The position numbers were made by a program, and so were the translations under genes. From contig CP013062.1 in the NCBI GenBank assembly GCA_001430755.1, positions 480,001-512,000 of the forward strand: a stretch of DNA of 32,000 bases. The letters are read 5' to 3'. The notes beneath the pieces were generated by a model. The model saw only the letters and a program-made list of their open reading frames with translations. It ran no database searches and had not been told where the DNA came from. This document shows positions 3,283-32,000 of the stretch, piece after piece. The DNA comes from Candidatus Peribacter riflensis. Lineage in GTDB: Bacteria > Patescibacteriota > Gracilibacteria > Peribacterales > Peribacteraceae. Position 1 is the first letter of the stretch; each line of letters starts with the position of its first letter.

Positions 3283-4146
3283 ATGGATCTACGCGCAACG
3301 CTCGATTCCGGCCGCGTCCTGCTGCTCGATGGCGCCATGGGCACGGAGCTTCATAAGCATGGCCTGCAGGGCCAGTGCGATGCCCACCAGAAGCATCCCG
3401 GCAAGGTCATCGCCCTTCACGATGCCTACCTGAGGGCGGGGGCGCAGGCCATCACCACCAATACCTTTCTCTTGAACAGGCTCACGCCTGCCGCCGTGCG
3501 CGACAAGCCCGACCTCGATTTCTTGAATCGCGTGGGTGTGGAGCTGGCGAGGAATGTGGCCGGGGAGGACCACTTTGTTCTGGGTGGTATGGGGCCCACC
3601 GGACGGGTCTTCGACATGGATCCCCTCATGACCGATGAGGCGGTACGGGCGGCCTATCTGGCACAGGCGCAGATCCTGGCCGAAGAGGGGACAGATGGTC
3701 TCATCATCGAGACGATGACGAGTTTGCGTGAGGCACTGCTGGCCCTCGAAGCCTGCCGCGAGGTGACCGATAAGCCCGTGATTGTTTCGATGTCCTACTA
3801 CACCATGAACAGGGGTATCCGGACGATGAATGGCGAGACTGCGGCGGAGTGTGCGAAGCTTCTCACAGAGAGGGGAGCGGACTCCGTCGGAACCAATTGC
3901 AGCACCTTCCTGATGCGTGAGATGGCGCAGGTGGTCGCGGCCATGCGCTCCGCTGTGACAAAGGTGCCGATCATCGCGCAGCCCAATGCCGGCCAGCCGC
4001 ATGGTGAGGAGGGGACGTACATCATGACGCCGCAGGAGTTTGCGGATGGAGTAAAGCTTTGTATCGAAAAAGGTGCGACGATGGTGGGTGGGTGTTGCGG
4101 GGCGGGGCCGGAGTGTATTGCGGAGGTGGGGAAACGGCTTAGTTAA
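3283..4146 (+). CDS. homocysteine S-methyltransferase domain protein (MmuM/MetH N-domain-like)
   Basis: N-terminal LLLDGAMGTEL and C-terminal GGCCG (zinc-ligand Cys pair), plus an internal GTNCS, are typical of the Pfam S-methyl_trans family. It ends in a double stop, TAA TAG. Confidence 0.85.
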   Translation: MDLRATLDSGRVLLLDGAMGTELHKHGLQGQCDAHQKHPGKVIALHDAYLRAGAQAITTNTFLLNRLTPAAVRDKPDLDFLNRVGVELARNVAGEDHFVLGGMGPTGRVFDMDPLMTDEAVRAAYLAQAQILAEEGTDGLIIETMTSLREALLALEACREVTDKPVIVSMSYYTMNRGIRTMNGETAAECAKLLTERGADSVGTNCSTFLMREMAQVVAAMRSAVTKVPIIAQPNAGQPHGEEGTYIMTPQEFADGVKLCIEKGATMVGGCCGAGPECIAEVGKRLS

Positions 4147-4342
4147 TAGGAACAGTAAGCTTGGCAAGCTTGGTGGACTCGGTGCGTAAACGTTGGAACC
4201 AGCTCCAGCAGATAATATTTGAGTGGTATGAGCAGCTTCGCCATATCAATGGAAGATTCGGATTGCAGCCTCTAATAGCGCAATGGACATCTGTCTTCAC
4301 ATACAAGAGGAGAATGGAAACTCCAATGCGTCATGGTGTAGA

Positions 4343-5089
4343 ATGGCGATGCAATCTATGCAAAGGAGGGTCATTAGCCTTTTCACCGGCGCAGGAGGTT
4401 TGGATATTGGCTTTGAGAAGGCAGGCTTTGAAATTTCTATTGCTGTTGAGTCCGATCCTGCTTGTTGCTCAACACTTAGAGCAAATAGGCCGTCTCTAAT
4501 TGTTATTGAAGATAAGATTGAGAATATCCCATCAGAGAAGATTCTGACACTTTCAGGGCTTCAACCGCTAGAGACAGATTTAGTTATTGGCGGTCCACCT
4601 TGCCAACCATTTAGCCTAGCCGGTGAACGCAGAGGACTGGAGGACCCCAAAGGTATGTTGCTGATGGAATTCGTTCGGGTCATACGAGAGACCCTTCCTA
4701 AGGGTTTTGTGCTTGAAAATGTAAAAGGATTACTAAACTGGGACGGGGGAAGGGCGAGAGATCTACTTCTGACTGAATTGGTTAAACCAATTTCCTACAA
4801 GGGAAAAACTTATCAATACGAAGTTGAGGTCAGGCTACTTAATGCATGTGACTATGGAGTGCCACAAAAACGAGAACGCGTTGTATTTGTTGGAAATCGA
4901 ATCGGCGTTAAATTCAAGTTTCCAACTCCTACGCATGCTGATAAGACTATTGCATCAATAAAGAAACTTAAGAAATATCGCACAGTTTGGGATGCAATTG
5001 GCAACTTGCCACCCCCTGATGAACCATCTGAAACAGCAAAAATGGTGGCACAGACAATTCGTGGTAGAATTGCTAAGCATGGTTACTAA
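4343..5089 (+). CDS. DNA (cytosine-5)-methyltransferase, N-terminal part / alpha subunit (motifs I-VIII)
   Basis: Contains motif I SLFTGAGGLDIGF, motif IV GGPPCQPFS, motif VI ENVKGL and motif VIII QKRERVVFVG. Candidate starts are ATG 4343, 4349 or 4358. The frame stops at 5087-5089, inside the variable (TRD) region. Confidence 0.85.
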   Translation: MAMQSMQRRVISLFTGAGGLDIGFEKAGFEISIAVESDPACCSTLRANRPSLIVIEDKIENIPSEKILTLSGLQPLETDLVIGGPPCQPFSLAGERRGLEDPKGMLLMEFVRVIRETLPKGFVLENVKGLLNWDGGRARDLLLTELVKPISYKGKTYQYEVEVRLLNACDYGVPQKRERVVFVGNRIGVKFKFPTPTHADKTIASIKKLKKYRTVWDAIGNLPPPDEPSETAKMVAQTIRGRIAKHGY

Positions 5090-5480
5090 GACGATAACAA
5101 ATCATCAGGTTACTGCTCATGCCCCAACCACGGTTGCCAAGATTTTGAAGGTGGCGATTGGTTACAAGCTATCAGAGCAGCAGAAAACTTTTGGCTCTAC
5201 TTATCGTCGCCTAGACCCATCAAAGCCATCGCCCACAGTGACAAGAAGCGGTTATCGAGACTTTATTCATCCCTACGAACATCGGATGCTCACAGTACGG
5301 GAACTGGCTTGCTTACAATCTTTTCCTTCAAATTGGGTGTTCAAAGGCGTTCGATTGGACTCATATAGTTCAAGGCGTCAAACAACGATGACTCAATTCG
5401 GACAAGTTGGTAACGCTGTTCCCCCGTTACTAGCCGAGGTAATAGCCCGGTCAATTATGGAACAGTTTTTCCCAAACTAG
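5079..5480 (+). CDS. DNA (cytosine-5)-methyltransferase, C-terminal part / beta subunit (TRD, motifs IX-X)
   Basis: This lies in a different frame. It carries ...ITNHQ..., motif IX RMLTVRELACLQSFP and motif X GNAVPPLLA. ATG 5079 overlaps the alpha stop by 11 nt, and the frame is open back to ATG 4992. Confidence 0.8.
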   Translation: MVTKTITNHQVTAHAPTTVAKILKVAIGYKLSEQQKTFGSTYRRLDPSKPSPTVTRSGYRDFIHPYEHRMLTVRELACLQSFPSNWVFKGVRLDSYSSRRQTTMTQFGQVGNAVPPLLAEVIARSIMEQFFPN

Positions 5481-5484
5481 AGTT

Positions 5485-6522
5485 ATGCCAAAAGTTCCAA
5501 AAGAGGTCACAAAGGAGCAGTACATGCTAAAATCCACCTTCTTCTTGGAGAAGCTTGATTCTTTTGGTTTTTTCAAACTATACGAAGATATCAAGAAGAT
5601 TGCCTTTGACCATGCAAAAGCTCACTCTTGGAATGAGCGAAAAGATTGGTGCATTGATGAACAAGCTTGGGAGGCGATTAAGCGTACTAAAATTAATCCT
5701 CTCCTTGTCTTTGCACACCCCAATATTCTCAAGATTTATCCGGCAATGCTTAAATATTACCGATCAGTTGCAATGCTCCCTCAGAAAGGGCTAAGTGCCA
5801 TTTCTGGCTTTAGCGGGATACGTGCTGTTGAGAATGAGAAAAAAGGAATTCCTGAGAAGAAATTAGGGCAGGTTCTATGCGCTTTAAACGAGGTGATGTC
5901 TACATTGATTAAACTTGTAAGCGCCCTTGATGAAGAAAAGATAAAGGGAATGATGTTTGCTACCGCAGGAACAACAATCGATGGTTCTTGGAGAAATCAA
6001 ATCGGAAGTGAGGGGGAGAGGGTTATTCGATCATTGATCCTCAGAAAATTACTTGATAACAAAGAAGTCACCGCATTCGTTTTAAAAAATGGCAGCTCAA
6101 AGAGCACTGAAGAATGGGACAATGAAGATCCTGTGAAGCACATTAATGAAATTAAATCATTCACAAATATAAATGGAACAGTGGTGATCTTTGGCTCTGA
6201 ACCAGACATTGAGTTCCGCAATAGCGAAGGTAAAGTTCTTGGCGGAGTAGAGATCAAAGCCGGATTAGATCCGGCGGGTGCGCTTGAAAGGCTTGGGGCA
6301 ATGTTTAAATCTTTTGAAAACATGCTCCAACAGTATCCTGCCGCAGCAACAATCCTAATCGCTTCCTGCATTACAGATGAGGTTGGCCAGCGCTTACGTA
6401 CATCACGCTCTGTGCAGCAGACTTACATAACAACGGACGTTATGAGTAATGAAAAAGGACAGGCTGATAAATTTTGCAACTCAATAAGAGGGATATTAGA
6501 GTTAGTAGAGAAAAGAATGTAA
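5485..6522 (+). CDS. putative type II restriction endonuclease (PD-(D/E)xK; possibly BsoBI/AvaI/AquI-like)
   Basis: It starts 5 nt after the MTase stop and shares the same AT-rich composition. SEPDIEF...GGVEIKAGLDPAGA fits a PD...ExK catalytic core. The E-x-K-x-G-x-DPAGA stretch matches my unverified recollection of BsoBI. Confidence 0.55.
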   Translation: MPKVPKEVTKEQYMLKSTFFLEKLDSFGFFKLYEDIKKIAFDHAKAHSWNERKDWCIDEQAWEAIKRTKINPLLVFAHPNILKIYPAMLKYYRSVAMLPQKGLSAISGFSGIRAVENEKKGIPEKKLGQVLCALNEVMSTLIKLVSALDEEKIKGMMFATAGTTIDGSWRNQIGSEGERVIRSLILRKLLDNKEVTAFVLKNGSSKSTEEWDNEDPVKHINEIKSFTNINGTVVIFGSEPDIEFRNSEGKVLGGVEIKAGLDPAGALERLGAMFKSFENMLQQYPAAATILIASCITDEVGQRLRTSRSVQQTYITTDVMSNEKGQADKFCNSIRGILELVEKRM

Positions 6523-6545
6523 CCAATTATTCTTATATCTTATAA

Positions 6546-6570
6546 TGGTGGAGATATCGAGAATCGAACC
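6546..6570 (-). other. tRNA 3'-end-like fragment (T-loop, acceptor, CCA); possible att remnant
   Basis: The reverse complement reads GGTTCGATTCTCGATATCTCCACCA. This gives a G53-TTCGATT T-loop, T-stem 3' strand, 7-nt acceptor strand, discriminator A and CCA. The 5' complement needed for a T-stem or acceptor stem is absent, so it is not a functional tRNA. Confidence 0.35.
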
Positions 6571-6612
6571 ATTGACTACTTCCCATGCATCAACCAATAT
6601 TATTTCAGGAAA

Positions 6613-6641
6613 GCAAAAAATAGCCTTCCTGAAGGCAGGCT
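6613..6641 (-). terminator. rho-independent terminator of the minus-strand AT-rich operon
   Basis: The minus strand reads AGCCTGCC-TTCA-GGAAGGCT (one mismatch) followed by ATTTTTTGC. It lies 30 nt after the stop at 6671. Confidence 0.6.
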
Positions 6642-6670
6642 TATTCTTGAGAAGTCACTTTGCGATCCGC

Positions 6671-6817
6671 TCAGTCCAAACAAACTTTTATGCCTTTGTT
6701 CTCTTCGATGGAGGAAAGGATTTTGGGATCATGAAATTGCATCCAATCGCGCTCGTCGCGGAATTGTCTGATTTTATTGAGGACTTGCCTGATCGGATCT
6801 TGCCTATCAATTTGCAT
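6671..6817 (-). pseudogene. truncated MazG-like (dCTPase-type) nucleotide pyrophosphohydrolase, N-terminal 48 codons only
   Basis: Not in the track because it is under 60 aa. My translation is MQIDRQDPIRQVLNKIRQFRDERDWMQFHDPKILSSIEENKGIKVCLD*. The FRDERDW-QFH-PK-L stretch is the typical N-terminus of roughly 100-120-aa all-alpha NTP pyrophosphohydrolases. Similarity is lost where the ExxE helix should begin. Confidence 0.5.
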
Positions 6818-7610
6818 AATTAGCCTGGAAATTCTTTAGCCACTGATCTGCAGCCGGCTTTCCAAATCTTTCCAGCATACAAGAGTAAGTCGCTCCATTA
6901 CAATTATAGATGAAGCAATCACTGTTATTTTCACATTTATACGACAGCAACAGAGATGAAATAGTTGCCCCACCGTATGTACCAGTAAGATCAACAGGAA
7001 CTGCAATGAGACTAGCAGAATCTGCGTTACCAGTATTGTTTATGAAATTAATAATGTGAGTAGGTTTACCTGTTTTTTCAAAATAATCACCAGAGGAAGC
7101 TATTTCATCTCCAAGCAGATTAATTTTTAGCATAACTTCTTGATTAGGAGCGATTAGGCCACCGCGGCGATTAGTATCGGAAATATCAATTTGATTTTTT
7201 GATATCCTAGAGGACTTAATAAATCCGGTCTCTCGTGCGAAGTTAAAAAGAACGACAACGGGAGAATCTGATGATACTTTGCCAGATATATCTAGGTTTA
7301 CCTGAGAGAATTTCCCAAGATAAATTATCTTGGGAATTTTTTCATAGTTATCTATGGAAAAAGGGTTGGAAGAAGGGACATAAGGTCCTTGAAGCAGTTC
7401 AAGAGTTCTGATATCTGAATCGGGGATTGGTTTTGGCAACACTGCTTCAGGCATTTTGGGCTTTATCCAATTAATCTCAACTAACCTGAGTCTGATAAAA
7501 GGAATAATTCTATTAATTACTGAATCAAAAACCAATAAAAATAAAACTGCTGAAATAATGAACAAAACGATTCCTTTGATAGCCGCTTTAACTTTGGCAT
7601 TTAGAATCAT
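6807..7610 (-). CDS. hypothetical N-terminally membrane-anchored protein (267 aa)
   Basis: An N-terminal hydrophobic helix (IVLFIISAVLFLLVF) is followed by a Ser/Asn-rich region and a Cys-containing C-terminus. The gene is AT-rich and overlaps the upstream gene by 23 nt. No family recognised. Confidence 0.6.
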   Translation of the reverse strand: MILNAKVKAAIKGIVLFIISAVLFLLVFDSVINRIIPFIRLRLVEINWIKPKMPEAVLPKPIPDSDIRTLELLQGPYVPSSNPFSIDNYEKIPKIIYLGKFSQVNLDISGKVSSDSPVVVLFNFARETGFIKSSRISKNQIDISDTNRRGGLIAPNQEVMLKINLLGDEIASSGDYFEKTGKPTHIINFINNTGNADSASLIAVPVDLTGTYGGATISSLLLSYKCENNSDCFIYNCNGATYSCMLERFGKPAADQWLKNFQANYAN

Positions 7611-7968
7611 ACTTTATGAATGGAATAAATTTCATTACGCAATGTGGAATGGAACAAAGAATTATTGCAGATGCAATAAACAAAAAATTTCCAAGCCAAA
7701 GAAATACTGCTAGTAGTAGCAATTCTGTTACAGAAACATCTTTTGTATTCCAAAAAAATTTGCATACAATCCACTCGTTAAGGGAACCCGATTTCCCATG
7801 ACTAATAAATAGGGGGAGAAAAATAAATACGAGAACAAAAAAACCAGTTAGAAATGAGACTTCAAGTTGAGAATATGAAATATTCACTAATTTGTTATAA
7901 CAAAAAATAGATAGGCCTACTATAAGCCACAAAAGAGTCATGTTGATAATAATTAATAAGGACTTCAT
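7588..7968 (-). CDS. hypothetical polytopic membrane protein (126 aa)
   Basis: It has about four hydrophobic segments and is the first gene of the AT-rich minus-strand operon. No family recognised. Confidence 0.55.
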   Translation of the reverse strand: MKSLLIIINMTLLWLIVGLSIFCYNKLVNISYSQLEVSFLTGFFVLVFIFLPLFISHGKSGSLNEWIVCKFFWNTKDVSVTELLLLAVFLWLGNFLFIASAIILCSIPHCVMKFIPFIKYDSKCQS

Positions 7969-8158
7969 AAATTATGTCTGTGCTAAGTTTGATGGTCACT
8001 TGAAATTTGTGCAAGGACATTTGCGCTACTAAGTACTCTGGCAAGATTATTTCCCATGAAACTTCCTATGCACCTCCTTCAGCTGCGGATCCTTCGCTCT
8101 TGTTCAGGACAAGTTCATCACTTCCCCCGAAACTTCCCCTGCTTCCCTCCACTCCACT

Positions 8159-8419
8159 TCACCTCGCCGCACTCCTCTCTGAGCTCACGTCAGCCAAGAC
8201 AGCGACAATGAGGATGATCACGCGCCACGTGTTCCACTCCCCGTGGTACCAATGCGCGACTGCGCTGTACCAGAGAAGGGTTAAGGGCAGAAAGATAAAG
8301 CCGAGGATCGGCCAGAGCTTTGTGACAAAAACGCCCTGAAACCATGTCGTCATCAACCAGAGTCCGGCGATCACGAATCGCGGTGCAATGAGGCCGATGA
8401 GTCCGATGATGAGTGGCAT
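8159..8419 (-). CDS. small hypothetical membrane protein (86 aa)
   Basis: Internal ATG at 8419 (MPLIIGLIGLIAPRFVIAGLWLM...) of track ORF 8159..8575. It is Trp-rich and hydrophobic, with host-like GC. Confidence 0.5.
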   Translation of the reverse strand: MPLIIGLIGLIAPRFVIAGLWLMTTWFQGVFVTKLWPILGFIFLPLTLLWYSAVAHWYHGEWNTWRVIILIVAVLADVSSERSAAR

Positions 8420-8738
8420 AGGTGGTGAAAGAGGGGAGTGTACACCTGCGGGCCTGTAGAGGAGGTGAGTCAGTGGTCTCTCATCTTCTGAAGCGGCAAT
8501 GATCTTTACAAGCAGGTGTACGCGTGTACACTCGCAGTATGAATTTCTTGAAGAGAGAAAAGCGTGCGCGTACAATACAAGTATTCCTCCCCACGGGATT
8601 CTCCCGTGGCCCCCGGGCGGCCCGAGCCCCCGGGAATCTTTGTATGTTCACATGTCTCAACGCGTAATCGCTTTCATTGATGGTTTCATTTCTTCAGTAT
8701 TCTGCTCAGGCCATTTGTCTTTTGCCCGCTGAATTCGT

Positions 8739-9236
8739 ATGAATGCTCCAGCGCCCAAAAACATCGCATATATTGACGGCGCGAACCTACACAAGAGCAT
8801 CAGTGCCCTCGGCTGGAAACTTGATTACCGTGTGTTTCGTCGCTGGCTGGAACAAAAGTACGGTGTTGAGGCTGTATACATATTCATCGGATTAATCCCT
8901 GCACAGCGTTCACTCTATCTTCGTCTCCAGGAATATGGCTACGTACTGGTCTACAAAGAAGTCACATACGACGGAGAGGGCAGAGTGAAGGGTAATTGTG
9001 ATGCCGATCTTGTGCTCAAGGTCACTCAAGATTACTACGAAGGCCGGATTGCGCAGGCGATTCTCGTTGCGAGTGACGGCGACTACAGCAGTTTGGTCGC
9101 CTTTCTGAAGGAAAAGCGCGTTTTCCGTACGTTACTTTCGCCGAGTAATAATTGTTCGTTCCTCCTGCGAAAGCTCAATATCCCAATCGTCTATCTCAAT
9201 ATGCTCCGAGGGAAGCTGGAGAAGAAAAACCCTTAA
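8739..9236 (+). CDS. NYN domain (LabA/PIN-like) putative RNase
   Basis: IAYIDGANL, KGNCDADLV and VASDGDYSSL match the acidic-residue signature of NYN/LabA-like domains. Confidence 0.8.
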   Translation: MNAPAPKNIAYIDGANLHKSISALGWKLDYRVFRRWLEQKYGVEAVYIFIGLIPAQRSLYLRLQEYGYVLVYKEVTYDGEGRVKGNCDADLVLKVTQDYYEGRIAQAILVASDGDYSSLVAFLKEKRVFRTLLSPSNNCSFLLRKLNIPIVYLNMLRGKLEKKNP

Positions 9237-9244
9237 ACGAAAAA

Positions 9245-9282
9245 GCCCCCGTCACGGACGTATCCGTGAAAGGGTCTTCTTC
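9245..9282 (+). terminator. putative intrinsic terminator after the NYN gene
   Basis: Stem TCACGGA (9252-9258) / TCCGTGA (9263-9269) has loop CGTA and is flanked by CCC/GGG. It is followed by the T-rich TCTTCTTC. Confidence 0.45.
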
Positions 9283-9455
9283 ATAGGGATACTCTCAGTC
9301 TACTCCCATCAACAGGATCATTTCAATACCTATAATTCTATGAGATAAAACTATCTGCTGTGATATTTCTTGTGCACTTCTTTAAATAACGAGAGGGAGT
9401 AACCTTCGGACGGAACCTTAGGTGTGCCCTCTCATCGTGATGCGTGCATCATAGC

Positions 9456-10382
9456 TCATTTCCCATGGAATTTCTTATGAACTTCTTTTAATTGAGGATT
9501 CGTGACGTGTGTATATATTTGGGTTGTTGAAAGATCCTTATGCCCCAGCATCTCCTGCACACTCCTCAAATCCGCCCCATTGCGCAGTAAGTCCGTCGCG
9601 AAGGAGTGGCGCAGGGTGTGTGGCGAAGGATTCGAGAGTATGCCGGCCTCAAGGGCATATCGCTTCACGATGCGGTAGATCATATTTGCGGATATCCTGA
9701 ATCGCTCACCCGGCGGCATCTCGAACGTGGCTTTCTGCAGATGACTGATGAAGAGCGGAGTGAGATGATCGAGTCTCGCTTCGAGGTATGCCTTCAGCGC
9801 GGTGCAGGCGGCGTCAGACAGAAAAACTACGCGCAGTTTTCCTCTCTTTCCGCGAACGCTGATTTCCTTGGTCTTAAAGTTCAGGTCAGTGCGGTTGAGA
9901 GAGCGCAACTCTGCGAGACGCATGCCGGTAGAGAAGAAGAGCTCCAAAATCGCCTTATCTCGCTTGCCCTCGCGGGTAGTGGTATCAGGAGAAGAGAGGA
10001 GGAGTGCGAGGTCATCGGCGAAGAGCACCTTGACCTTGCGCTGTTCCTCTTTGAAGCGCTGGATGCGATCAGGAGGAAGCACGTCCATTTCTTCTTCTTG
10101 AATAAGGTAACGCAAGAAAGCCCGCAGTATTGTCAAATGATGATTCTTTGTACGGATAGAGAGTTCACGTCCATTACGGGCTCGAAATGAGTGAAGCGCC
10201 GTCTTATAGATACGGATCGTCTGCTTACTGAAGAGGAGGGGACTTTCGATTTGAGAGAGCTTCAAAAGAAGATCAAGGGATTGCCTGTAGGACCGGATCG
10301 TAAGAGGAGACTTATTCTGCTCCGCCTGGAGGAAAGTAAGATAGCGGTCAATGGCCTGAGCAAGTGTCGTTGGATGGCTCAT
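9456..10382 (-). CDS. site-specific tyrosine recombinase, XerC/XerD family
   Basis: An N-terminal SAM-like domain is followed by the catalytic signature ...GMRLAEL...HTLRHSFATDLLRNGADLRSVQEMLGHKDLSTTQIYTHV (R, HxxR, H, Y). Confidence 0.85.
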   Translation of the reverse strand: MSHPTTLAQAIDRYLTFLQAEQNKSPLTIRSYRQSLDLLLKLSQIESPLLFSKQTIRIYKTALHSFRARNGRELSIRTKNHHLTILRAFLRYLIQEEEMDVLPPDRIQRFKEEQRKVKVLFADDLALLLSSPDTTTREGKRDKAILELFFSTGMRLAELRSLNRTDLNFKTKEISVRGKRGKLRVVFLSDAACTALKAYLEARLDHLTPLFISHLQKATFEMPPGERFRISANMIYRIVKRYALEAGILSNPSPHTLRHSFATDLLRNGADLRSVQEMLGHKDLSTTQIYTHVTNPQLKEVHKKFHGK

Positions 10383-10415
10383 CGAGCGGGGGAGAGGGGT
10401 TTTCCACAGTACTTC

Positions 10416-21845: not shown

Positions 21846-22844
21846 TCACTGTCTTCCCTCTCCCCCTGGGAGAGGGTGGTGCAAAGCACCGGGTTGCGGG
21901 ATGGGTGAGGGAGCGATCCAGCGAATCCGCTCATCCTCTCTCCACCACGTCATCTGCCGCCTGGCGTACTGGCGCGCCTTTGCCGTGATGGCCTGCTTCA
22001 GGGCCGCATCTCTACGCACCTCCTCCACGGAAGCCTTCTGGAGCCGCTCTGCAATGTCACGGTACCCGTGGCTCTGCATACCCGGATCCTCCGCGCTGTA
22101 CCCATGCTGCAGCAGGGACGACACTTCCTCCACGAAGCCCTCTGCGAACATGGCTTCGGTGCGCGCGGCGATGCGGCGGTGCAGTTCCTCGCGCGGGAGG
22201 GCGAGGCCCATGAAGAAGAGATCTTCGTCAGATGAAGTGTTTTTTTTCTTGGCATGCTTCAGCGTCCTGCCGGTGACGAGGCACACTTCCAGCGCACGCA
22301 GCAGGTACACGCTGTTGCGCGGATCGACGGAGAGCGCCCCTTCGGGATCGAGCTCCTGCAACTCTGCGAAGAGGGCAGCCGGCCCCTCCGTCTGCAGGCG
22401 CTTTCTGAGCGTTTTGCGCAAGGAAGGATCAGCACGATCCACGAACGCCAGATGGTCAACGATCGCGCTCACGTAGAGCATCGACCCTCCGACCAAAAAC
22501 GGCACATGTGCTCTCTGCCGGATCTCCCCGATCACACGCTCCGCCTCACGCTTGTACCATGCCGCAGTCACTTCTTTCTTCGGATCAAGCTGATCGAGAA
22601 GGTGATGCGGAATCCCCTGCATGTCCTCTGTGCGAATCTTGGCCGTGCCGATATCGAGAGCGCGGTAAAGCTGGCGCGAATCGGCATTGATGATCTCCAC
22701 GGTCTTCCCCTCCTCCGAAAGAGCGTGTGCCAGCGAGATCGAAAGTGCGGTCTTGCCGCTCGCCGTGGGTCCGACGAGCACGAGGAGTGGACGTTTTGCA
22801 GTCGTGAGAAATGCCCCGATGTCAGTGATGATCGACGTCTCCAT
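21846..22844 (-). CDS. miaA: tRNA dimethylallyltransferase
   Basis: Internal ATG 22844 (METSIITD...) of the 571-aa track ORF. P-loop GPTASGKTALS, INADSRQLYRALDIGTAKI and MiaA-like sequence continue throughout (332 aa). Confidence 0.9.
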   Translation of the reverse strand: METSIITDIGAFLTTAKRPLLVLVGPTASGKTALSISLAHALSEEGKTVEIINADSRQLYRALDIGTAKIRTEDMQGIPHHLLDQLDPKKEVTAAWYKREAERVIGEIRQRAHVPFLVGGSMLYVSAIVDHLAFVDRADPSLRKTLRKRLQTEGPAALFAELQELDPEGALSVDPRNSVYLLRALEVCLVTGRTLKHAKKKNTSSDEDLFFMGLALPREELHRRIAARTEAMFAEGFVEEVSSLLQHGYSAEDPGMQSHGYRDIAERLQKASVEEVRRDAALKQAITAKARQYARRQMTWWREDERIRWIAPSPIPQPGALHHPLPGGEGRQ

Positions 22845-22989
22845 TCGCCCGAATCGTACTGGTATTGAGGGAAAAAACCGAAATGTACTCTCAACTTTAC
22901 ATTCCTCCGCACCACATTCCTCTGCTGGCGCCAACTGCCGGGAAAACACAAAAAGAAGTATAATTCTTGCGAGGTTTAAAGGAATCAAT

Positions 22990-23028
22990 CCCCTACTCCT
23001 AACCCTAACCCTAACCCTTCCCCTATCC
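22990..23028. repeat. telomere-like (CCCTAA)n-type repeat directly upstream of clpP
   Basis: cccctactcctaaccctaaccctaacccttcccctatcc. The C-tracts at 23003-23023 fit C3-TAA-C3-TAA-C3-TT-C4. The repeat ends 2 nt before the clpP ATG. Confidence 0.85.
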
Positions 23029-23030
23029 AC

Positions 23031-23675
23031 ATGCATCCCAAGCTCTCTTCGATCGCAGCCCAGATCTCGCGCGGAACGCTCACGCCACAGAACTTCCTCA
23101 TTCCGACAGTGATCGAGAAGACGCAGTTCGGGGAGCGCGTGTACGACATCTACTCCCGCCTGCTCGAGGACCGCGTCGTGTTCCTCGGTACAGCGATCAA
23201 TGATGACGTTGCGAACTCCATTATCGCGCAGCTCCTCTTCCTCGAAAAAACGAACGCCAAGAAAGACATCACCCTCTACGTGAACTCCCCCGGCGGACAG
23301 GTCACCTCCACGCTCGCCATGTACGACACCATGCAGTACGTACAGCCCGATATCTCCACGGTCTGTCTGGGCATGGCTGCCAGCGGAGGCGCGATCATCC
23401 TCATGGGCGGCGCCAAGGGCAAGCGCTTCGCCCTGGACCATGCCGAGATCATGATTCACCAGCCGCTCGGCGGAACAGAAGGCCAGGCCACGGATATCGC
23501 CATCCACGCCGACCACATCATCCAGACCAAGAAACTGCTCAATGAGCTCATTGCCCAGCACACGGGCAAGCCCGTGGAACAGGTAACGGCCGACACCGAG
23601 CGCGACAAGTTCCTGTCTGCCAAAGAGGCGCTGAAGTACGGGCTCATCGACCGGATCGTGACAAAGGGAGCCTGA
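23031..23675 (+). CDS. clpP: ATP-dependent Clp protease proteolytic subunit
   Basis: [31 protein letters not shown], catalytic-Ser motif GMAASGGA and IMIHQP are present. It has an N-terminal extension of about 22 aa. Confidence 0.95.
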
Positions 23676-26023: not shown

Positions 26024-26098
<75 letters not shown>

Positions 26099-26470
26099 AC
26101 GTGATGACAAGGGACGAGATGCTCTGTGGATAGAGAAAGAGAAAACCGCGCCAAAGATACCCTCTTTCATCATTTTGTCCAAATCGGCTGTAGGCTGGAA
26201 CATTTTGAAGCAGATGAGCATTCTTAAGCCTGTTTCAGTGCAGGGCATGAGCCTCTCATGAAACCCGGTATTCAATTAGAAATAATGAAACATATTACCG
26301 ATTTGACAATCATGATAAATATTATTAACAAACGATGGATAAGTGGCTACTGAAGTACTCGATCTAACTTTTGACGAATCGTTCATTTAATTGACTTAAC
26401 TACAGTAAAGACTAGCATTCATCCCTTTATGGTTTCTGTCCACTTATCATCTATTTTCCCCACGGTCATT

Positions 26471-29400
26471 ATGGAAAAACGAGAAGCAGCGAAGAAAATC
26501 TTCGCCACGATTGCCCTATTTCTGCTCTTGGTTTCTCAACCGGGGGTGTCTTCGCTCTGGAGCCTCGTTCCGGCCGTCGCCGAAGAGAGCTCGTCTTCTG
26601 AGCAAAGCATGTCTTCAGAGGCGCAGGCTCCTGCGCCGGCAATCGAGCCGCCAATCTTCGATGAATCGCAGGCGGTGCTCATGGCTCCGATCATGCCTTC
26701 GAGCTCTGTGGAATCTGTGCCAAACGTCCAGGCATCTATCGAGGAGGACCAGTCCTCATCCGTCACGAATCAGCCTCAGGCATCTCCTGTCGCTGAGCAG
26801 GTGGTCACTTCCGGAATGCAGGCATTTTCTGCAGGCGGATCGGCGTTTACGTGGCAAATTATCTGTGGGGAATCTGGCAGCAACCGCAACATCGCCTGCA
26901 ATGAAGCCTGCAGTCACTGTTGGAGCGATACCTACTACTTCTGGCGGAAATTTCTGCTGAAGGAAATCGGCTATTTCTACCGTGATAACCATGGAAACCG
27001 CGTGAAAGTGCCGTTCGCAACGGGCCAGAATATCTGCCGTGACGGCACCTCAGCCGTGAGCGGCGGAGGGACCGTTCCGGCCGGCATCACCGTGCTCGGC
27101 ACGTACACCTCGTGGAAGATCAATGATTACACGCATCTCTATACCCTCTACTCCGACACGCATTCAGCCATTGTCTGCCCGCGTGGAGGAAACCGCACCG
27201 ACTACTACTGGGATGACGGCGGAAACCCGGGCACCCACAACGATGGCCGCCTGATCTTCAACTACTCTCCCGCCCCCGCACAGTGCGCGGACGGCATCGA
27301 CAATGACAACGATGGAGCCACCGATACGGCAGATTTCAGCTGCTCCTCAACGACAGACACCGACGAGACCAATCCCAAGGCCCAGTGCCAGGATGGATCG
27401 GATAACGATGGAGACGGCGTTGTAGACGGGCAGGATCCCGGCTGCAGCGGCAACCAGGACAACGACGAGCACAACATCTGTCCCGCAGCCACGCAGACCT
27501 CCACCTGCCACTGCGCCACGAACGCGGACTGCACCGCCCCCGACACCTGCCAGAGCGGCATCTGCCGTCCGGTGACGTACCAGTGTAATGACGGCATTGA
27601 TAACGATAATGACGGGGCAACGGACTTCCCGAATGATTTCAGCTGCTCCTCGGCCACGGACAACGACGAGACGAATCCGAAGGCCCAGTGCCAGGATGGC
27701 GTGGATAACGATCAGGATGGAAAAACCGATGCACAGGATCCCGGGTGCTCCGATGCCCAAGATAATGATGAATGGAACGCATCTTCGTCATCCTCATCCT
27801 CCTCCGTGCCCGGCACTACGCAGTGCAGCGACGGCATCGACAATGATCAGGATGGAAAAATAGATGCGTTGGTCGAGCTGAGCCCGACCAACGGCCAGAC
27901 GCGGGTCTGGAACGCCGACACCGTCGGCATTCGCGCCTTCTACAACCAGAAGGCCGCCGAACGCGGATACACGCAGATTTCCACGAACTGGAACGGGCAG
28001 GGCATGGTGAGCAACGATGCCACCACCGCAGACAAGATCTGCGAGCTGGCGGGATTCAACACAGTCGTCTCCAGAAACTGCTTCGAGTACGGCACGAGCG
28101 GACGCTGTAACTTCTCCAGCTGCGGCGACAACAGTATGGGCGTGTGGAGCACATCTGCCAATAACATGAACATCGTGGGTGCCTGCGGGTACACGTGGCT
28201 GGCTTCCCTCACCTGCCGCGACCGTCTGGCCGCCTGCAGTGACGGCATCGACAACGACGGTGACGGCCAGAAAGATATGGCCGACAGCGGCTGCGCAACG
28301 CCGAACGATGACAGCGAGATCGCCCACGATCCGGACTGCACCGGTCCGAGCGATCCGACCGAGGCACCTGCCTACCAGTGCTCCGACGGCATCGACAATG
28401 ACAACGACGGAGCCACTGATATGAACGACTTCAGCTGTTCTTCACCCACGGATACCGACGAGACGAACCCGAAGGCCCAGTGCCAGGATGGCGTGGATAA
28501 CGATCAGGATGGAAAAACCGATTATCCAAACGATCCGGGCTGCAGCTCAAAACAGGATAATGATGAGTACAATACGAATCCCTACTGCGCCAACAATACG
28601 TCCATGACCGCTCCCGAGATGGCATCTGCCATCACCGCGGGCGCCGTGACCGCAACCTTCACGCAACAGGGTGGTCAGGAGATCATCCACATCAATAACA
28701 CGACAGGCTGCAGGGCGCCGGTGGTGCTGGCCTCGTACAAGGTCTTCATCGCCCCGACGAATCCAGGATGGCTGGATACGCAGGAATTCATCGCAGAATC
28801 CGCAGTGACCAACATCCAGCCGACCGGCACGACGGATATCAGTGTGGCTGTTGCCTCCTGCAAATCTCAGGTGGATCTGTGGTACCAATTCGCCCCGCAC
28901 CAACTGCAAGACAGCGATCCGTATCACAATCCGAATCAGCTTCCCTACGTCATGTTTGCGGCGATGTCCTCGGGCGGTCTCTGTCCTGTTACGACGGCAC
29001 AGTGCTCCGACGGCATCGACAACGATCAAGACGGTGCCACGGATTGGCCATGGGATTTCAGTTGTTCATCCATCGATGACAACGATGAAACATTCCCGAA
29101 GGCCGAGTGTCAGGATGGCATCGACAATGATCAGGATGGAAAGACCGATTACCAGCAGGATCCCGACTGCGGAGGGAACCAGCAAGGAACAGAGGGAACG
29201 CCCCTCCTCACCTGCCCCGGCGGCTCCAATAAGCTCACAATCCTCAGCGGAACGGATACGCTCCTCAATAACGGACAACCGTCCGCGATCACGTGGAGCA
29301 ATCATGCGCTCTGGAACGCCAGTATCCCCGGCGCTTCCTGGCTCTGGTCTTCCTTCTACGTCACCGACCCGACGGTCCAGCAGGATAACCTCCTCGCGAA

Positions 29401-32000
29401 GTCGTTCCAGATCCCCGGCCCCGTCACCGCCACGAAACTGACGGTGGCAGCAGATAACCAATTCCGCGCGGCCATCAACGGGCACCTGTTCAACGGAAAC
29501 TACCACGAAGGGACCTTCCAGAAGGAAATCTCTTACACGAACTCAACGTATTTCCAGCAAGGTGCGAACATCCTTTCTTTCGATGTGAGAAACCTGGGAG
29601 TCGCAGGTTCGACAGCGCAGACAAATCCGGCCGGACTCCTCTACCGGTTGGAAGTGTGCTACCAGCCTACGCCGCCTCCCCAGTGCAGCGACGGCATCGA
29701 CAATGACAACGATGGAGCCACTGATATGAACGACTTCAGCTGTTCTTCACCCACGGACAACGATGAGACGAATCCCAAGGCCCAGTGCCAGGATGGCGTG
29801 GATAACGATCAGGATGGACTTGCAGACTACCCGATGGATCCGGGCTGCAGCGGGAATCAGGATAACGACGAGCGCAACATCTGCCCCGCAGCGACGCAGA
29901 CCTCGACCTGCCGCTGCGCCACGAATGCCGACTGCACCTCACCCGACACCTGCCAGAACGGGTACTGCCGGCCAGTGACGTACCAGTGTAATGACGGTAT
30001 CGACAACGATCAGGACGGCAAGACCGATTACCCGAATGACCCGGACTGCGTGAGCCCGAGTGATAATGACGAAACCGGCTCGATCGGCAGCTGCAACGGG
30101 CAACCGATCAGCCTGACAAGCCTGCCGAATTTGCAATCAATTATCCTACACGAGGATACGACAAACATAGCAACGTATACCTTTGCAAAGAACGATCCCA
30201 AGTTGTTCCAGGACCTCAACCAGAGTCCTACATCCTACGACTTCTCTACGAATGCCGACGAGTACTACGATCTCTACATCAGTAACGCCGATGGTTCGGT
30301 GAATCCAAACGGCAGTTACCTGACAATCGATGATTTCCGCAACAATACGCTTTTGAATGCCCAGGTTGGCCACAACATAGACGCAGTGGAACTCAAGCTC
30401 TCAAGCGGCCCGAGTTTCTACGCAGACAAGGTGGTGAAGGTTGCCATCGGCACAGGCCTCTCCGGCGACTACCTGAACCAGAACGGCTACGCAACAAGGG
30501 CGCTCGGCACACCAAATGCACAGAGTACTCGCCTGGGCGATCAGCATGCGCGCCTGGTGCTCGGGTTCTGCGATGCGCTCCAGAATCTGCCGGCATGTTC
30601 CGATGGCATTGATAATGATGGGGACGGCGCAACCGACTATCCAGGTGACTTCAGTTGCGACTCTCCGACAGACAACGATGAAACGAATCCCAAGGCCCAG
30701 TGCCAGGATGGCATCGACAACGATCAGGATGGACTCATCGACTATCCCAATGATCTTGGATGTTCCAGTGCGCAGGATCAGACCGAGGCCAACACCGATA
30801 TCTGCAGCGCAGACGGCGACATCAGCATGAAAATTTACCTCACACATGTCAGTAATGAAGGGGCTGGGAATACGCAGCCTAAAATCTATCTGACGAACGA
30901 ATCGCTTCCCGTGAATCCAGGACAGACCATTGACCTTGTGCAAAACGGAGTGCCTGTGATCGATGCAATAGAACAATTGAATATCCCGGGGCTCTCGGTA
31001 CAGCGAGGAAATGGATGGGTGCGAATCGGACTGTACGGCAGCCATCCGACACACGAATCCATCGAACGTATGATTGGAGAAATGGTCCTGCTGGGCGCGC
31101 AGGTCACGGCATTTGAAAATGATACGCGAGCCAGCAACCCAGTGGAGCGGCCGCGCAACAACATCCACCGTGGCATTCCAACGGAAGACGAAGTGTATCC
31201 GAATGTCGGAACCAATAATACTGCGTTCTTCCTGACCGTCGACACGGCGAACGACGTCTTCACGATCCGCTACGCACCTGTACTCTGTCCCGCACCGCAG
31301 GCGGATCTCTCGGTGACGAAGAGCGGGCCTTCCTCTGTCGTGGCAGGCAATACGGTCTCGTACACCGTGACCGCGGCAAATGCCGGACCGCATACCGCAA
31401 CGAACGTGGTCATCGCGGATGTGATTCCAGCAGGGCTGACCTTCGATGCAGGGGCCTCGACCCCGGGTTGTATCCTCAACGGAGCAGGCACCAGCGTGCT
31501 GTGCAATAACTTCTCGCTCACGGCCGGGCAGACGCGCACCTTCACCATCGCCTTCACGGTGCCTTCCACGCACCCGTGCGACGGAACGAATATGATCACG
31601 AATCAGGCGACGGTCTCCTCCTCGCAGGGGGATCCGAATGCCGGCAATAACACGAGCACAACGGTGACGACGCCGGTGCAATGTCCCGCCGCACCGAAAG
31701 CGGATCTCTCGATCGTGAAGACGGGACCGAGTTCCGTGCTGCGCGGCGAGGCGATCGCGTACACCGTGACCGTGACGAATGCCGGCCCCACAGACGCCCA
31801 GAACGTGGTGATCACGGATCTGATTCCCACAGGGCTGACCTTCGATGCAGGGGCCTCGACCCCGGGTTGTGTCCTCAACGGAGGCGGAACCAGCGTGCTG
31901 TGCAATAACTTCACCTTGCAGCCCGCGCAGAGCCGCACCTTCACCATCGCCTTCACAACGGCTTCTTCGCTCTCCTGCGGATCGACGATCCGCAACACGG
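26471..32000 (+). CDS. giant secreted/surface repeat protein, 3'-truncated by the window (at least 1,843 codons)
   Basis: My own translation of the frame starting at ATG 26471 finds no stop up to nt 31999. It is absent from the ORF track. The N-terminus MEKREAAKKIFATIALFLLLVSQPGVSS... looks like a signal peptide. All repeat motifs fall in this frame; spot checks at 27284, 27584, 27821, 28235, 29681, 30596, 31301 and 31682 confirm it. Confidence 0.85.
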   Translation, partial: MEKREAAKKIFATIALFLLLVSQPGVSSLWSLVPAVAEESSSSEQSMSSEAQAPAPAIEPPIFDESQAVLMAPIMPSSSVESVPNVQASIEEDQSSSVTNQPQASPVAEQVVTSGMQAFSAGGSAFTWQIICGESGSNRNIACNEACSHCWSDTYYFWRKFLLKEIGYFYRDNHGNRVKVPFATGQNICRDGTSAVSGGGTVPAGITVLGTYTSWKINDYTHLYTLYSDTHSAIVCPRGGNRTDYYWDDGGNPGTHNDGRLIFNYSPAPAQCADGIDNDNDGATDTADFSCSSTTDTDETNPKAQCQDGSDNDGDGVVDGQDPGCSGNQDNDEHNICPAATQTSTCHCATNADCTAPDTCQSGICRPVTYQCNDGIDNDNDGATDFPNDFSCSSATDNDETNPKAQCQDGVDNDQDGKTDAQDPGCSDAQDNDEWNASSSSSSSSVPGTTQCSDGIDNDQDGKIDALVELSPTNGQTRVWNADTVGIRAFYNQKAAERGYTQISTNWNGQGMVSNDATTADKICELAGFNTVVSRNCFEYGTSGRCNFSSCGDNSMGVWSTSANNMNIVGACGYTWLASLTCRDRLAACSDGIDNDGDGQKDMADSGCATPNDDSEIAHDPDCTGPSDPTEAPAYQCSDGIDNDNDGATDMNDFSCSSPTDTDETNPKAQCQDGVDNDQDGKTDYPNDPGCSSKQDNDEYNTNPYCANNTSMTAPEMASAITAGAVTATFTQQGGQEIIHINNTTGCRAPVVLASYKVFIAPTNPGWLDTQEFIAESAVTNIQPTGTTDISVAVASCKSQVDLWYQFAPHQLQDSDPYHNPNQLPYVMFAAMSSGGLCPVTTAQCSDGIDNDQDGATDWPWDFSCSSIDDNDETFPKAECQDGIDNDQDGKTDYQQDPDCGGNQQGTEGTPLLTCPGGSNKLTILSGTDTLLNNGQPSAITWSNHALWNASIPGASWLWSSFYVTDPTVQQDNLLAKSFQIPGPVTATKLTVAADNQFRAAINGHLFNGNYHEGTFQKEISYTNSTYFQQGANILSFDVRNLGVAGSTAQTNPAGLLYRLEVCYQPTPPPQCSDGIDNDNDGATDMNDFSCSSPTDNDETNPKAQCQDGVDNDQDGLADYPMDPGCSGNQDNDERNICPAATQTSTCRCATNADCTSPDTCQNGYCRPVTYQCNDGIDNDQDGKTDYPNDPDCVSPSDNDETGSIGSCNGQPISLTSLPNLQSIILHEDTTNIATYTFAKNDPKLFQDLNQSPTSYDFSTNADEYYDLYISNADGSVNPNGSYLTIDDFRNNTLLNAQVGHNIDAVELKLSSGPSFYADKVVKVAIGTGLSGDYLNQNGYATRALGTPNAQSTRLGDQHARLVLGFCDALQNLPACSDGIDNDGDGATDYPGDFSCDSPTDNDETNPKAQCQDGIDNDQDGLIDYPNDLGCSSAQDQTEANTDICSADGDISMKIYLTHVSNEGAGNTQPKIYLTNESLPVNPGQTIDLVQNGVPVIDAIEQLNIPGLSVQRGNGWVRIGLYGSHPTHESIERMIGEMVLLGAQVTAFENDTRASNPVERPRNNIHRGIPTEDEVYPNVGTNNTAFFLTVDTANDVFTIRYAPVLCPAPQADLSVTKSGPSSVVAGNTVSYTVTAANAGPHTATNVVIADVIPAGLTFDAGASTPGCILNGAGTSVLCNNFSLTAGQTRTFTIAFTVPSTHPCDGTNMITNQATVSSSQGDPNAGNNTSTTVTTPVQCPAAPKADLSIVKTGPSSVLRGEAIAYTVTVTNAGPTDAQNVVITDLIPTGLTFDAGASTPGCVLNGGGTSVLCNNFTLQPAQSRTFTIAFTTASSLSCGSTIRNT
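27281..30772 (+). repeat. array of 15 C-x-DG-x-DND-x-DG-x-x-D motifs within the giant ORF
   Basis: Six double modules read QC(S/A/N)DGIDNDNDGATD..DFSCSS.TD.DETNPKAQCQDG(V/I)DNDQDG..D...DPGC. They start near 27281, 27581, 28376, 28998, 29681 and 30590. Three single motifs lie near 27821, 28232 and 29981. Confidence 0.85.
31289..32000 (+). repeat. tandem DUF11-like domains (period 399 nt) at the end of the visible giant ORF
   Basis: ADLS(V/I)(T/V)K(S/T)GPSSV...YTVT..NAGP..A.NVVI.D.IP.GLTFDAGASTPGC.LNG..TSVLCNNF occurs twice. A 41-nt identical run lies at 31431-31471 and again at 31830-31870. Confidence 0.75.

Follow-up and report, generated by a model that had tools for sequence, protein, structure and literature searches.

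Bacteria of the candidate phyla radiation are thought to live attached to other cells, and the molecules by which they attach are unknown. Candidatus Peribacter riflensis belongs to the Peregrinibacteria of this radiation, and one stretch of its genome raises the question in a concrete form. This stretch, hereafter the window, comprises 32,000 nucleotides of contig CP013062.1 (assembly GCA_001430755.1, positions 480,001 to 512,000 of the forward strand), and a giant gene that starts at position 26471 of the window fills its right end and runs off the edge. What kind of protein does this gene encode, and could it be a molecule of attachment? The answer favoured below is that it is probably a Sec-exported modular fibrillar adhesin, held in the membrane by its C-terminus, in which a stalk of CLIPPER domains carries a Ca2+-stiffened, disulfide-locked string of modules that includes at least one lectin.

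The first point to settle is the reading frame itself. A computed translation of the plus strand from 26471 to 31999 gives 1,843 codons with zero stops up to the window end, and the closest in-frame stop 5' of the ATG at 26471 ends at 26374. At the window's G+C content of about 58%, a stop is expected at about 3.5% of random codons, so that a 1,843-codon open frame would arise by chance with a probability of about 1e-28 by our own estimate. An earlier reading of this DNA from its letters alone (the sequence-only reading) had claimed this stop-free frame and had supposed that a real gene was missed by the list of open reading frames (ORFs) because its stop lay outside the window; the retranslation bears out the first claim and the rule of the ORF lister the second. 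The lister leaves out any ORF that runs off a window end, and hence for 26471-32000 its list held only short or antisense ORFs, such as one of 426 aa at 30401..31681 on the minus strand. This antisense ORF was rejected as a gene: on the opposite strand lies coding sequence whose homologues score E = 0, and comparable long antisense ORFs occur at orthologous loci too.

The start codon can also be fixed by comparison. An in-frame ATG at 26429, used by gene callers for the deposited copies P0001, P0266 and P0268, was considered and rejected, as its counterpart is TAG in locus L005, out of frame in L002 and probably so in L009, according to our own reading of an upstream alignment of four regions. 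Positional orthologues begin at a Met homologous to that at 26471, with the pattern MAK(I/L)E..KK...LLL.SQPGVS(S/A)L, and the GenBank entry HBH20097.1 begins at the same ATG. Because the orthologues share this Met and the ATG at 26429 is not conserved, 26471 is taken as the start, and residues are numbered from it throughout. A Shine-Dalgarno sequence could be recognised at none of about 20 gene starts inspected across the window, and its lack at the giant gene thus carries no weight.

The gene has been deposited before. The window translation is 100% identical to residues 1-1,843 of HBH20097.1 (hypothetical protein DDX11_03960, partial, Candidatus Peribacter riflensis; 2,959 aa). That entry is the last on contig DNSX01000010.1, where it follows ClpP, TGT and L21 and itself runs off the contig. 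HBH20097.1 sits in the 90%-identity cluster of P0001 (2,601 aa, 97% identical), found by a protein search that also returned many giant DUF11 proteins of Candidatus Peribacteraceae and Peregrinibacteria. For the closed genome RIFOXYC2_FULL_PER-ii_58_32, supplementary table 2 of Anantharaman et al. (2016, PeerJ 4:e1607, PMC4736985) places clpP at 503117-503761, tgt at 504356-505465 and rplU at 505462-505776, followed by tRNA(Gln) and then by RIFOXYC2_FULL_PER-ii_58_32_471, a protein of 3,861 aa annotated as 'likely cell surface'. From ClpP in the window (23031-23675) to the ATG of the giant gene the offset is 3,440 nt, the same as in the closed genome, and clpP, tgt, rplU, tRNA-Gln and the giant gene are spaced exactly as RIFOXYC2_FULL_PER-ii_58_32_467 to _471 are. 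The window gene is identified with _471 because this offset of 3,440 nt is the same in both, and with the same neighbours, the same base offsets and 100% identity over 1,843 aa, _471 and HBH20097.1 are the same gene. The window accordingly holds the 5' 48% of it, and the stop should be found about 6,053 nt beyond its right edge. For the full length of 3,861 aa the source is supplementary table 2 of Anantharaman et al. (PMC4736985); here the stop codon was not reached, in that a scan of a genome collection gave only distant relatives matched through the repeat, a metagenome scan gave none, P0001 could be assigned to no contig, the longest copy (P0264) leaves its contig, and a search with the last 378 aa of that copy gave no complete protein.

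In the same paper, _471 is listed among the proteins of elevated cysteine content (107 Cys in 3,860 aa, supplementary table 4), the large exported Cys-rich proteins of Ca. P. riflensis are read as possible attachment factors, and the main differences among five Peribacter strains are described as insertions and deletions in twelve proteins, seven of them of 1,219-3,861 aa (PMC4736985). The suggestion of a lipoprotein in the 2016 annotation was rejected: there is no lipobox, and the first Cys of the giant protein is at aa 132. Given the GenBank entry, the 2016 listing, a curated NCBIfam model for the repeat and a 2025 structure for the stalk domain, the gene counts as known. It is genuine, largely ordinary for its lineage, and already carries essentially the same functional guess in the 2016 paper. 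The earlier claim that no characterised homologue could be named thus fails for the gene itself, which stands in both GenBank and Anantharaman et al. 2016, and is otherwise half true. A domain dissection does not appear in the available parts of that paper (PMC4736985); the additions made here are a match to the teneurin Ca2+ sites, a CBM67-like module, five orphan module families, conserved promoter boxes and module shuffling at a fixed locus.

With a gene this repetitive, one explanation to be weighed is that the long frame is an assembly artefact, a chimera of shorter paralogous repeat genes. Identity between its internal DNA repeats ranges from 60 to 87%, reaching 87% for the 198-nt copies and 85% for the 204-nt copies. 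The deposited copies P0001, P0265, P0266, P0268 and P0264 all end at different points of the DUF11 array (lengths, in ascending order, of 1,777, 2,185, 2,258, 2,601 and 2,959 aa), and P0266 ends in out-of-frame sequence. It is because of these differing break points that the stalk array, and not the part in the window, is regarded as the region that is hard to assemble. P0001 also differs from the window by seven substitutions and a 48-aa deletion. The 144 nt deleted equal the spacing of the repeat copies at 28235 and 28379 and are kept in P0264, P0265, P0266 and P0268; recombination or slippage between repeats would produce such a deletion, as would a collapse of reads in the P0001 data set. 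What speaks against a chimera is that P0265, P0266 and P0268, three public copies that come from further assemblies or read sets, differ from the window by 0, 0 and 4 residues over the overlap, that the longest exact repeat within the gene is just 54 nt, that syntenic orthologues of 2,338-3,684 aa occur in other genomes, and that the manually closed genome has a single 3,861-codon gene at exactly the same coordinates (PMC4736985). A tandem-repeat artefact was rejected too, as TRF finds no tandem array. Mis-assembly of the window part is unlikely, and a chimeric origin of the frame has next to no probability.

Read from its start, the protein divides into the following parts, all on the plus strand.

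26471..26581, plus strand: start codon and putative Sec-type signal peptide (aa 1-37), with n-region MEKREAAKK, h-region IFATIALFLLLV, the motif SQPGVSSL and a candidate cleavage site between AVA and EE.
26582..26830, plus strand: low-complexity linker rich in Ser, Ala, Pro and Gln (aa 38-120), seen in the translation; no Pfam match.
26831..27274, plus strand: module G1 (aa 121-268, 6 Cys); no Pfam match.
27284..27475, plus strand: acidic repeat pair (aa 272 and 306), from NF033662 and the motif table.
27476..27571, plus strand: 6-Cys knot 1 (aa 336-367), C-x8-C-x-C-x5-C-x5-C-x4-C, from the sequence; no Pfam match.
27584..27790, plus strand: acidic repeat pair (aa 372 and 407), then a poly-Ser tract, from NF033662 and the motif table.
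27824..28231, plus strand: half-repeat (aa 452-466, C.DG.DND.DGKIDAL, no closing Cys) fused to module G2 (aa 466-587), Cys-rich alpha/beta.
28235..28582, plus strand: three acidic repeats (aa 589, 637 and 671), including the 144-nt unit missing in P0001 (copies at 28235 and 28379).
28583..28996, plus strand: module G3 (aa 705-842), with conserved YCANG, NNTTGC.AP, SYK.F and Q.DLWY..AP; no PDB or Pfam relative.
29003..29206, plus strand: acidic repeat pair (aa 845 and 880), from NF033662 and the motif table.
29207..29680, plus strand: module G4 (aa 913-1070), CBM67-like (galactose-binding-domain-like) lectin beta-sandwich, from profile and model.
29684..29878, plus strand: acidic repeat pair (aa 1072 and 1106), from NF033662 and the motif table.
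29879..29974, plus strand: 6-Cys knot 2 (aa 1137-1168), from the sequence.
29987..30085, plus strand: single acidic repeat (aa 1173), from the motif table.
30086..30595, plus strand: module G5 (aa 1206-1375), with conserved EYYD.Y.SD, GNNIDAV and ALG.PD...T.LGD; no PDB or Pfam relative.
30596..30802, plus strand: acidic repeat pair (aa 1376 and 1411), from NF033662 and the motif table.
30803..31294, plus strand: module G6 (aa 1445-1608), with conserved DVPGLAVQR.NG; no PDB or Pfam relative.
31304..31663, plus strand: DUF11/CLIPPER Ig-like stalk domain 1 (aa 1612-1731), from PF01345 and TIGR01451.
31703..31999, plus strand: DUF11/CLIPPER stalk domain 2 (aa 1745 onward), from PF01345 and TIGR01451, cut by the window end.

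This inventory of 15 repeats, two knots, six modules and two DUF11 domains agrees with the mosaic of acidic Cys-framed motifs, Cys knots, globular inserts and DUF11 domains described by the sequence-only reading. At the N-terminus, the n-h-c layout of a Sec signal peptide that it had reported is likewise present, with a hydropathy peak of 2.97, and both this layout and the SQPGVSSL motif are conserved in positional orthologues. Export would then be by the Sec route, directed by the N-terminal signal peptide.

The element that recurs most is the acidic repeat, of about 34 residues, in a protein that is 10% Asp. The NCBIfam model NF033662 (acidic double-disulfide repeat-containing protein) matches the window protein at 238.2 bits against a cut-off of 41, in 15 stretches (E 2.6e-72), and the motif C.DG.DND.DG occurs 15 times, starting at aa 272, 306, 372, 407, 452, 589, 637, 671, 845, 880, 1072, 1106, 1173, 1376 and 1411. 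Cys residues stand at 0 and +19/+20 in 14 of these units; the remaining one, at aa 452, has no closing Cys and runs into G2. Across the 14 complete units the invariant columns are C, D, G, D, N, D, D, G, D, D, C and E, with the core D-G-x-D-N-D-x-D-G-x-x-D. The NF033662 family, whose cut-off the window repeats far exceed, is defined by sequence alone, with function and structure not attached, and a literature search for its name found no mention. As to the knots that accompany the repeats, knot 1 is conserved at 88-97% in P0002, P0004, P0005 and P0007, and the 204 nt at 29836-30039 repeat, at 85% DNA identity, the stretch 27433-27636 in which knot 1 lies.

The best solved relative of the repeat is the C-rich domain of teneurin-4 (7PLP), found at E 0.12 with a single sequence and at E 0.0081 with a repeat profile. 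Its structure, solved at 1.5 Å, has three Ca2+ ions, with E835, D840, D843, N844, D845, D847, D851, D854 and D856 as ligands; thrombospondin type-3 repeats have counterparts of sites I and II, and C838-C857 is one of three disulfides (PMC9058538). The domain was described by its discoverers as unlike any other known fold. The repeat shares with the teneurin C-rich domain and with thrombospondin type-3 repeats the core C-x-D-x-x-D-N-D-x-D-G-x-x-D...D-P-x-C. Its residues C0, D2, D5, N6, D7, D9, D13, D16/17 and C19/20 stand at the equivalent positions of teneurin-4; all six of the site I and II ligands D840, D843, N844, D845, D847 and D851 align with invariant columns, and the two Cys correspond to C838 and C857 (the 1-3 disulfide). 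The two differ in that the teneurin domain has six Cys in three disulfides (1-3, 2-5, 4-6) against two Cys per repeat here, and in that teneurin's third, LDLR-A-like Ca2+ site is not evidently conserved in the repeat. Since the Cys, Asp and Asn of the repeat match these teneurin-4 positions, it is a well-founded inference that each repeat binds Ca2+ at two sites and is closed by one disulfide. Placed between the globular beads, repeats with the motif D-x-x-D-N-D-x-D-G-x-x-D, each closed by one disulfide, would bind Ca2+ and stiffen the linkers. As a side reading, NF033662 repeats may be prokaryotic relatives of the metazoan teneurin C-rich Ca2+ domain.

Two Pfam families that the sequence-only reading had proposed to search for did not hold for these motifs. 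PF02412, the thrombospondin type-3 family, gave no match on the whole protein, nor at E up to 10 on the repeat segment. The MopE-type motif PF11617 reached at best 15.4 bits against a cut-off of 27 (E 0.022, on the second half of one repeat), with no match in scans of the whole protein or of the repeat segment. The MopE comparison bears on an alternative that the sequence-only reading had raised, a metal-binding envelope protein: like MopE, the protein might bind or buffer metals, its motifs serving mainly to sequester Ca2+, Cu or other cations. By analogy with teneurin-4, 15 repeats with two Ca2+ each would hold about 30 ions; the sub-threshold resemblance just given is another point in favour, as is the presence of true PF11617 motifs, also Asp-rich, Cys-framed and short, in the relatives P0122, P0123 and P0193. 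Those true copies, however, have a different Cys pattern (DC.D....I.PGA.E.CNG.DDDCDG..DE), the score falls short of the threshold and is absent from the other scans, and the ligands are oxygen donors throughout (Asp, Asn), as is typical for Ca2+ and not for Cu. Metal storage would also leave six differing modules, a lectin domain and an Ig-like stalk unexplained, and it is very improbable as the main role of the protein.

Among the modules, a functional clue comes from G4. Searched against PDB sequences with hmmsearch, a G4 profile matches residues 134-231 of the rhamnosidase 3w5m, which we take to be its CBM67 domain, at E 8.6e-17; matches to the lectins 6t1d, 6t0q and 6kbj follow at about 1e-15. 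The AlphaFold2 model of G4 is a confident beta-sandwich (pLDDT 94.3), for which Foldseek returns CBM35, CBM36, GH2 sugar-binding and rhamnosidase domains at E of about 6e-5 to 1e-3 and TM 0.44-0.52. The 'AADN' of G4 aligns with the 'SADN' of 3w5m and is invariant or nearly so in the G4 family alignment. In Streptomyces avermitilis, SaRha78A carries CBM67 as a Ca2+-dependent rhamnose-binding module (PMC4690510). Profile match and beta-sandwich model thus liken G4 to this CBM67 (3W5M/3W5N) and to the lectins 6KBJ, 6T0Q and 6T1D; G4 differs from SaRha78A in that no glycoside hydrolase is attached to it, and its TM-scores to solved CBMs are modest (0.44-0.52). The probable ligand of G4 is thus a sugar, for example rhamnose, carried by a partner cell or a polymer.

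The remaining five modules are orphans. For G1, G2, G3, G5 and G6, searches of Pfam, NCBIfam and PDB sequences found no relative, and hhalign found G5 and G6 unrelated to G4. Homologues of G1, at 48-77% identity, occur in only a few Peribacteria proteins or loci. G2 has an AlphaFold2 core with pLDDT above 90, for which a Foldseek comparison with the PDB gave nothing significant (best E 0.44), and it has no Pfam or PDB sequence-profile relative; the DGKIDAL half-repeat regularly precedes it and recurs in homologues. When the six modules were concatenated, a word-index search gave four proteins and an exhaustive HMMER search 1,192 at E <=1e-3, mostly through G4; the module alignments were made per domain.

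The modules are followed by the stalk. PF01345 matches the window protein at 134.3 bits against a cut-off of 24.6, in two stretches, and TIGR01451 at 81.7 against 24. The 2,959-aa copy P0264 continues this array to about 10 DUF11-type units in all (motif count), with one more acidic repeat pair, and CLIPPER and CLIPPER_2 are listed for it. DUF11 has been renamed CLIPPER, a CnaA-like Ig domain that often has a Lys-Asp-Asn isopeptide bond and forms the stalks of fibrillar adhesins; some DUF11 domains are without the bond, and DUF11 also occurs in archaeal sheath or porin-like surface proteins (PMC12617251). Domain 1 aligns weakly (E 0.0057) to the CLIPPER crystal structure 9IFR, whose triad is K715/D748/N806. 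In this weak alignment N1711 falls on N806, D1650 falls on the Asp of 'LND', taken as D748 (our own residue count differs by one), and the candidate Lys, K1617 in 'DLSVTK', lies two residues off the aligned position. The long array of Ig-like DUF11/CLIPPER domains would form a stalk beside the anchor, possibly with isopeptide cross-links.

The anchor itself is seen in complete orthologues. Among 263 related proteins retrieved, 11 end in '(S/N)[IL]P...W..G..G..G[KR][KR]' (P0002, P0003, P0006, P0014, P0021, P0025, P0028, P0033, P0036, P0052 and P0101), the first of them a positional orthologue, and the C-terminus of the P0002 type consists of a hydrophobic transmembrane helix followed by a basic cluster. 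The giant protein would by this comparison be held in the cytoplasmic membrane by a hydrophobic C-terminal anchor. If the N-terminal signal is cleaved and a C-terminal anchor holds the other end, the N-terminal modules would lie at the distal end: the half of the protein that the window encodes would be held off the cell with its six unrelated modules as beads on a string. The three parts of the tail (motif, transmembrane helix and basic cluster) resemble sorting signals of the exosortase or archaeosortase type, and no NCBIfam model matches the C-terminal anchors. Other acidic-repeat proteins end differently, in '...DRWREFWNWNW' or '...IPRFxxEC', one tail occurring in P0015-P0017, P0020, P0022, P0024, P0035, P0040 and P0041, and the other of the two in P0011, P0013, P0031, P0032, P0038, P0048, P0050, P0060, P0071 and P0080.

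A surface protein of this composition could also be structural and S-layer-like, forming or belonging to a Ca2+-bridged lattice or sheath that shields or shapes the cell, its variable modules serving immune or phage evasion and not ligand binding. Many Ca2+-dependent S-layers are very acidic, and so is this protein (10% Asp). In P0044, a member of the family, the C-terminus is formed by an SLH-type domain (PF00395), the DUF11 domains of archaeal sheath or porin-like surface proteins (PMC12617251) offer a parallel, and hypervariability at a fixed locus would also suit the diversification of a phage receptor. Set against this are the 2,959 aa seen, in which there is no SLH or other lattice-forming domain, and the separate S-layer genes that the 2016 paper lists for this genome (PMC4736985). 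A distal lectin module on an Ig-like stalk, with a single C-terminal transmembrane anchor in orthologues, is moreover the layout of a fibrillar adhesin (PMC12617251). A lattice or sheath protein is on balance unlikely, and the earlier suggestion of a surface adhesin has been strengthened by the CBM67-like module, the CLIPPER stalk domains and the C-terminal membrane anchors of complete orthologues.

The fibrillar adhesin favoured here also has to be seen in its genomic setting, beginning with the region upstream of the gene, in which two features stand out.

26024..26098, minus strand: tRNA-Gln(UUG), found by ARAGORN and by the Rfam tRNA model (66.9 bits), directly preceding the giant gene in the window and in orthologous loci.
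26250..26470, plus strand: AT-rich region of the candidate promoter and 5' leader; TTGAC boxes lie near 26304, 26371 and 26391, and TTGACT-16 nt-TAGCAT at 26391-26418 makes up a -35/-10 pair.

The AT-rich candidate promoter had been noticed before, and its low G+C was confirmed (30-39% over 26250-26450, against about 59% in the surroundings). A consensus scan found five promoter-like sites upstream, against 0.5 expected from shuffles. In four aligned orthologous upstream regions (the window, L002, L005 and L009), the three TTGAC boxes and a TAnnAT box that lies 16 nt past the third are invariant, so that the sigma-70-like boxes are now known to be conserved at four loci. This phylogenetic footprinting supports a candidate promoter, and transcription would start from the conserved sigma-70-like sequence in the AT-rich spacer. 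The TTGAC and TAnnAT boxes at 26300-26420 could be tandem promoters or regulator-binding sites. An Rfam scan of the upstream region returned the tRNA plus chance-level matches only.

The same locus can be followed through related genomes. The neighbours of the giant gene are housekeeping genes (M23 peptidase, TsaE, ZIP, MgsA, MiaA, ClpP, TGT and L21), whose proteins are 77-82% identical to those of L002 and L005, two loci in metagenome-assembled genomes of Peribacteraceae. TGT, and mostly L21 too, adjoins the match in at least 12 Peribacteria loci, and tRNA-Gln on the minus strand is followed by the giant gene on the plus strand in all four loci examined (L002, L005, L009 and L010). Positional orthologues are 2,338-3,684 aa long and have the signal peptide, repeats and DUF11 domains in common; Cys knots are found in three of four, and the modules are not kept. 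L002 has G1 and G2, and L029 has G2. L005, L009 and L010 share no modules with the window, save for a marginal G1 match of 29% identity in L009. In L028 the orthologue (6002-8560) has G1, G4 and G3 in that order, against G1, G2, G3 and G4 in the window (26831-29680), which points to module rearrangement. As orthologues at a fixed locus carry differing modules, module content turns over much faster than the neighbouring genes.

This turnover bears on a further possibility, that the protein does not reach for another cell at all. G4, and perhaps other modules, might tether the protein to the rhamnose- or perosamine-containing wall polymers of its own envelope, making it an intrinsic, wall-organising component. 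According to the abstract of the 2016 paper, Ca. P. riflensis makes both rhamnose and perosamine for its envelope (PMC4736985), and G4 is related to a rhamnose-binding module. Binders of a self polymer should nevertheless be conserved, yet the modules swap between close relatives whose neighbouring genes remain 77-82% identical, and a self-envelope tether appears quite unlikely.

For the fibrillar adhesin, turnover at a fixed locus can be put to use. Repeats similar at the DNA level would serve in-frame recombination, of which the 144-nt indel and the differing module sets may be products, and the outcome would be a binding specificity that varies between strains. More tentatively, this fixed locus, with tgt, rplU and tRNA-Gln ahead of the giant gene, may determine the host range of Peribacteria by shuffling cassettes, in which case the repeats are both rigid spacers and recombination substrates and G1, G2, G3, G5 and G6 represent widespread, undescribed families; this extension is possible, and we would not put it higher.

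Several points weigh against the adhesin as set out here. Localisation, Ca2+ binding, sugar binding and adhesion are all inferred, for close relatives as well as for the protein itself, and the anchor comes from complete orthologues, as even the longest copy of this protein covers no more than 2,959 aa. The match to teneurin is a short one of marginal significance (E 0.0081), with six Cys there against two per repeat here, and the repeats flanking G2 have AlphaFold2 pLDDT values of only 40-64. A function can be assigned to none of the five modules G1, G2, G3, G5 and G6, and G4 could bind the organism's own rhamnose-containing envelope polymers in place of a partner cell.

Elsewhere in the window, two other observations were made. 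The 571-aa ORF of MiaA (in the region 21846-23675, with a GTG start) is probably over-extended: its IPPT domain begins at aa 297, and it overlaps ClpP at 23031-23675 on the plus strand. An island of low G+C at 4000-10400 (33-46% against about 59%) looks like an integrated mobile element with a type II restriction-modification system. Found in the island are a C-5 cytosine DNA methylase divided between two overlapping ORFs at 4283-5089 and 4992-5480, possibly by a frameshift, an XcyI-type restriction endonuclease at 5485-6522, an NYN-domain protein at 8739-9236, a tyrosine recombinase at 9456-10382 on the minus strand, and two unassigned minus-strand ORFs.

What follows for the biology is modest and practical. 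The giant gene encodes the largest strain-variable surface protein of the best-assembled Peribacter genome, and the label 'hypothetical, likely cell surface' can be replaced by a testable model in which a CLIPPER stalk bears one lectin-like and five orphan modules with Ca2+-stiffened linkers. The analysis has also brought out the turnover of modules at a fixed locus. The model should be useful for choosing constructs for binding and structural work, and it leaves the current picture of these organisms unchanged.

Among known systems, the giant RTX-type adhesins, such as LapA and MpIBP, are one natural comparison, as they too use Ca2+-stiffened repeats to project sugar- or protein-binding modules from the cell. 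LapA and MpIBP differ from the present protein in being exported by type I secretion, where a Sec signal peptide is predicted here, and in their repeat types and anchoring; Pfam and NCBIfam scans of the window protein found no RTX motifs. A further comparison is with the fibrillar adhesins that have DUF11/CLIPPER stalks (PF01345; 9IFR; PMC12617251), whose layout recurs here as a putative signal peptide, binding modules and a tandem Ig-like stalk, with a C-terminal anchor in the orthologues. Compared with these adhesins, the isopeptide Lys is not cleanly aligned here, the host belongs to a candidate phylum, and the adhesive region is unusually long and is interleaved with acidic disulfide repeats.

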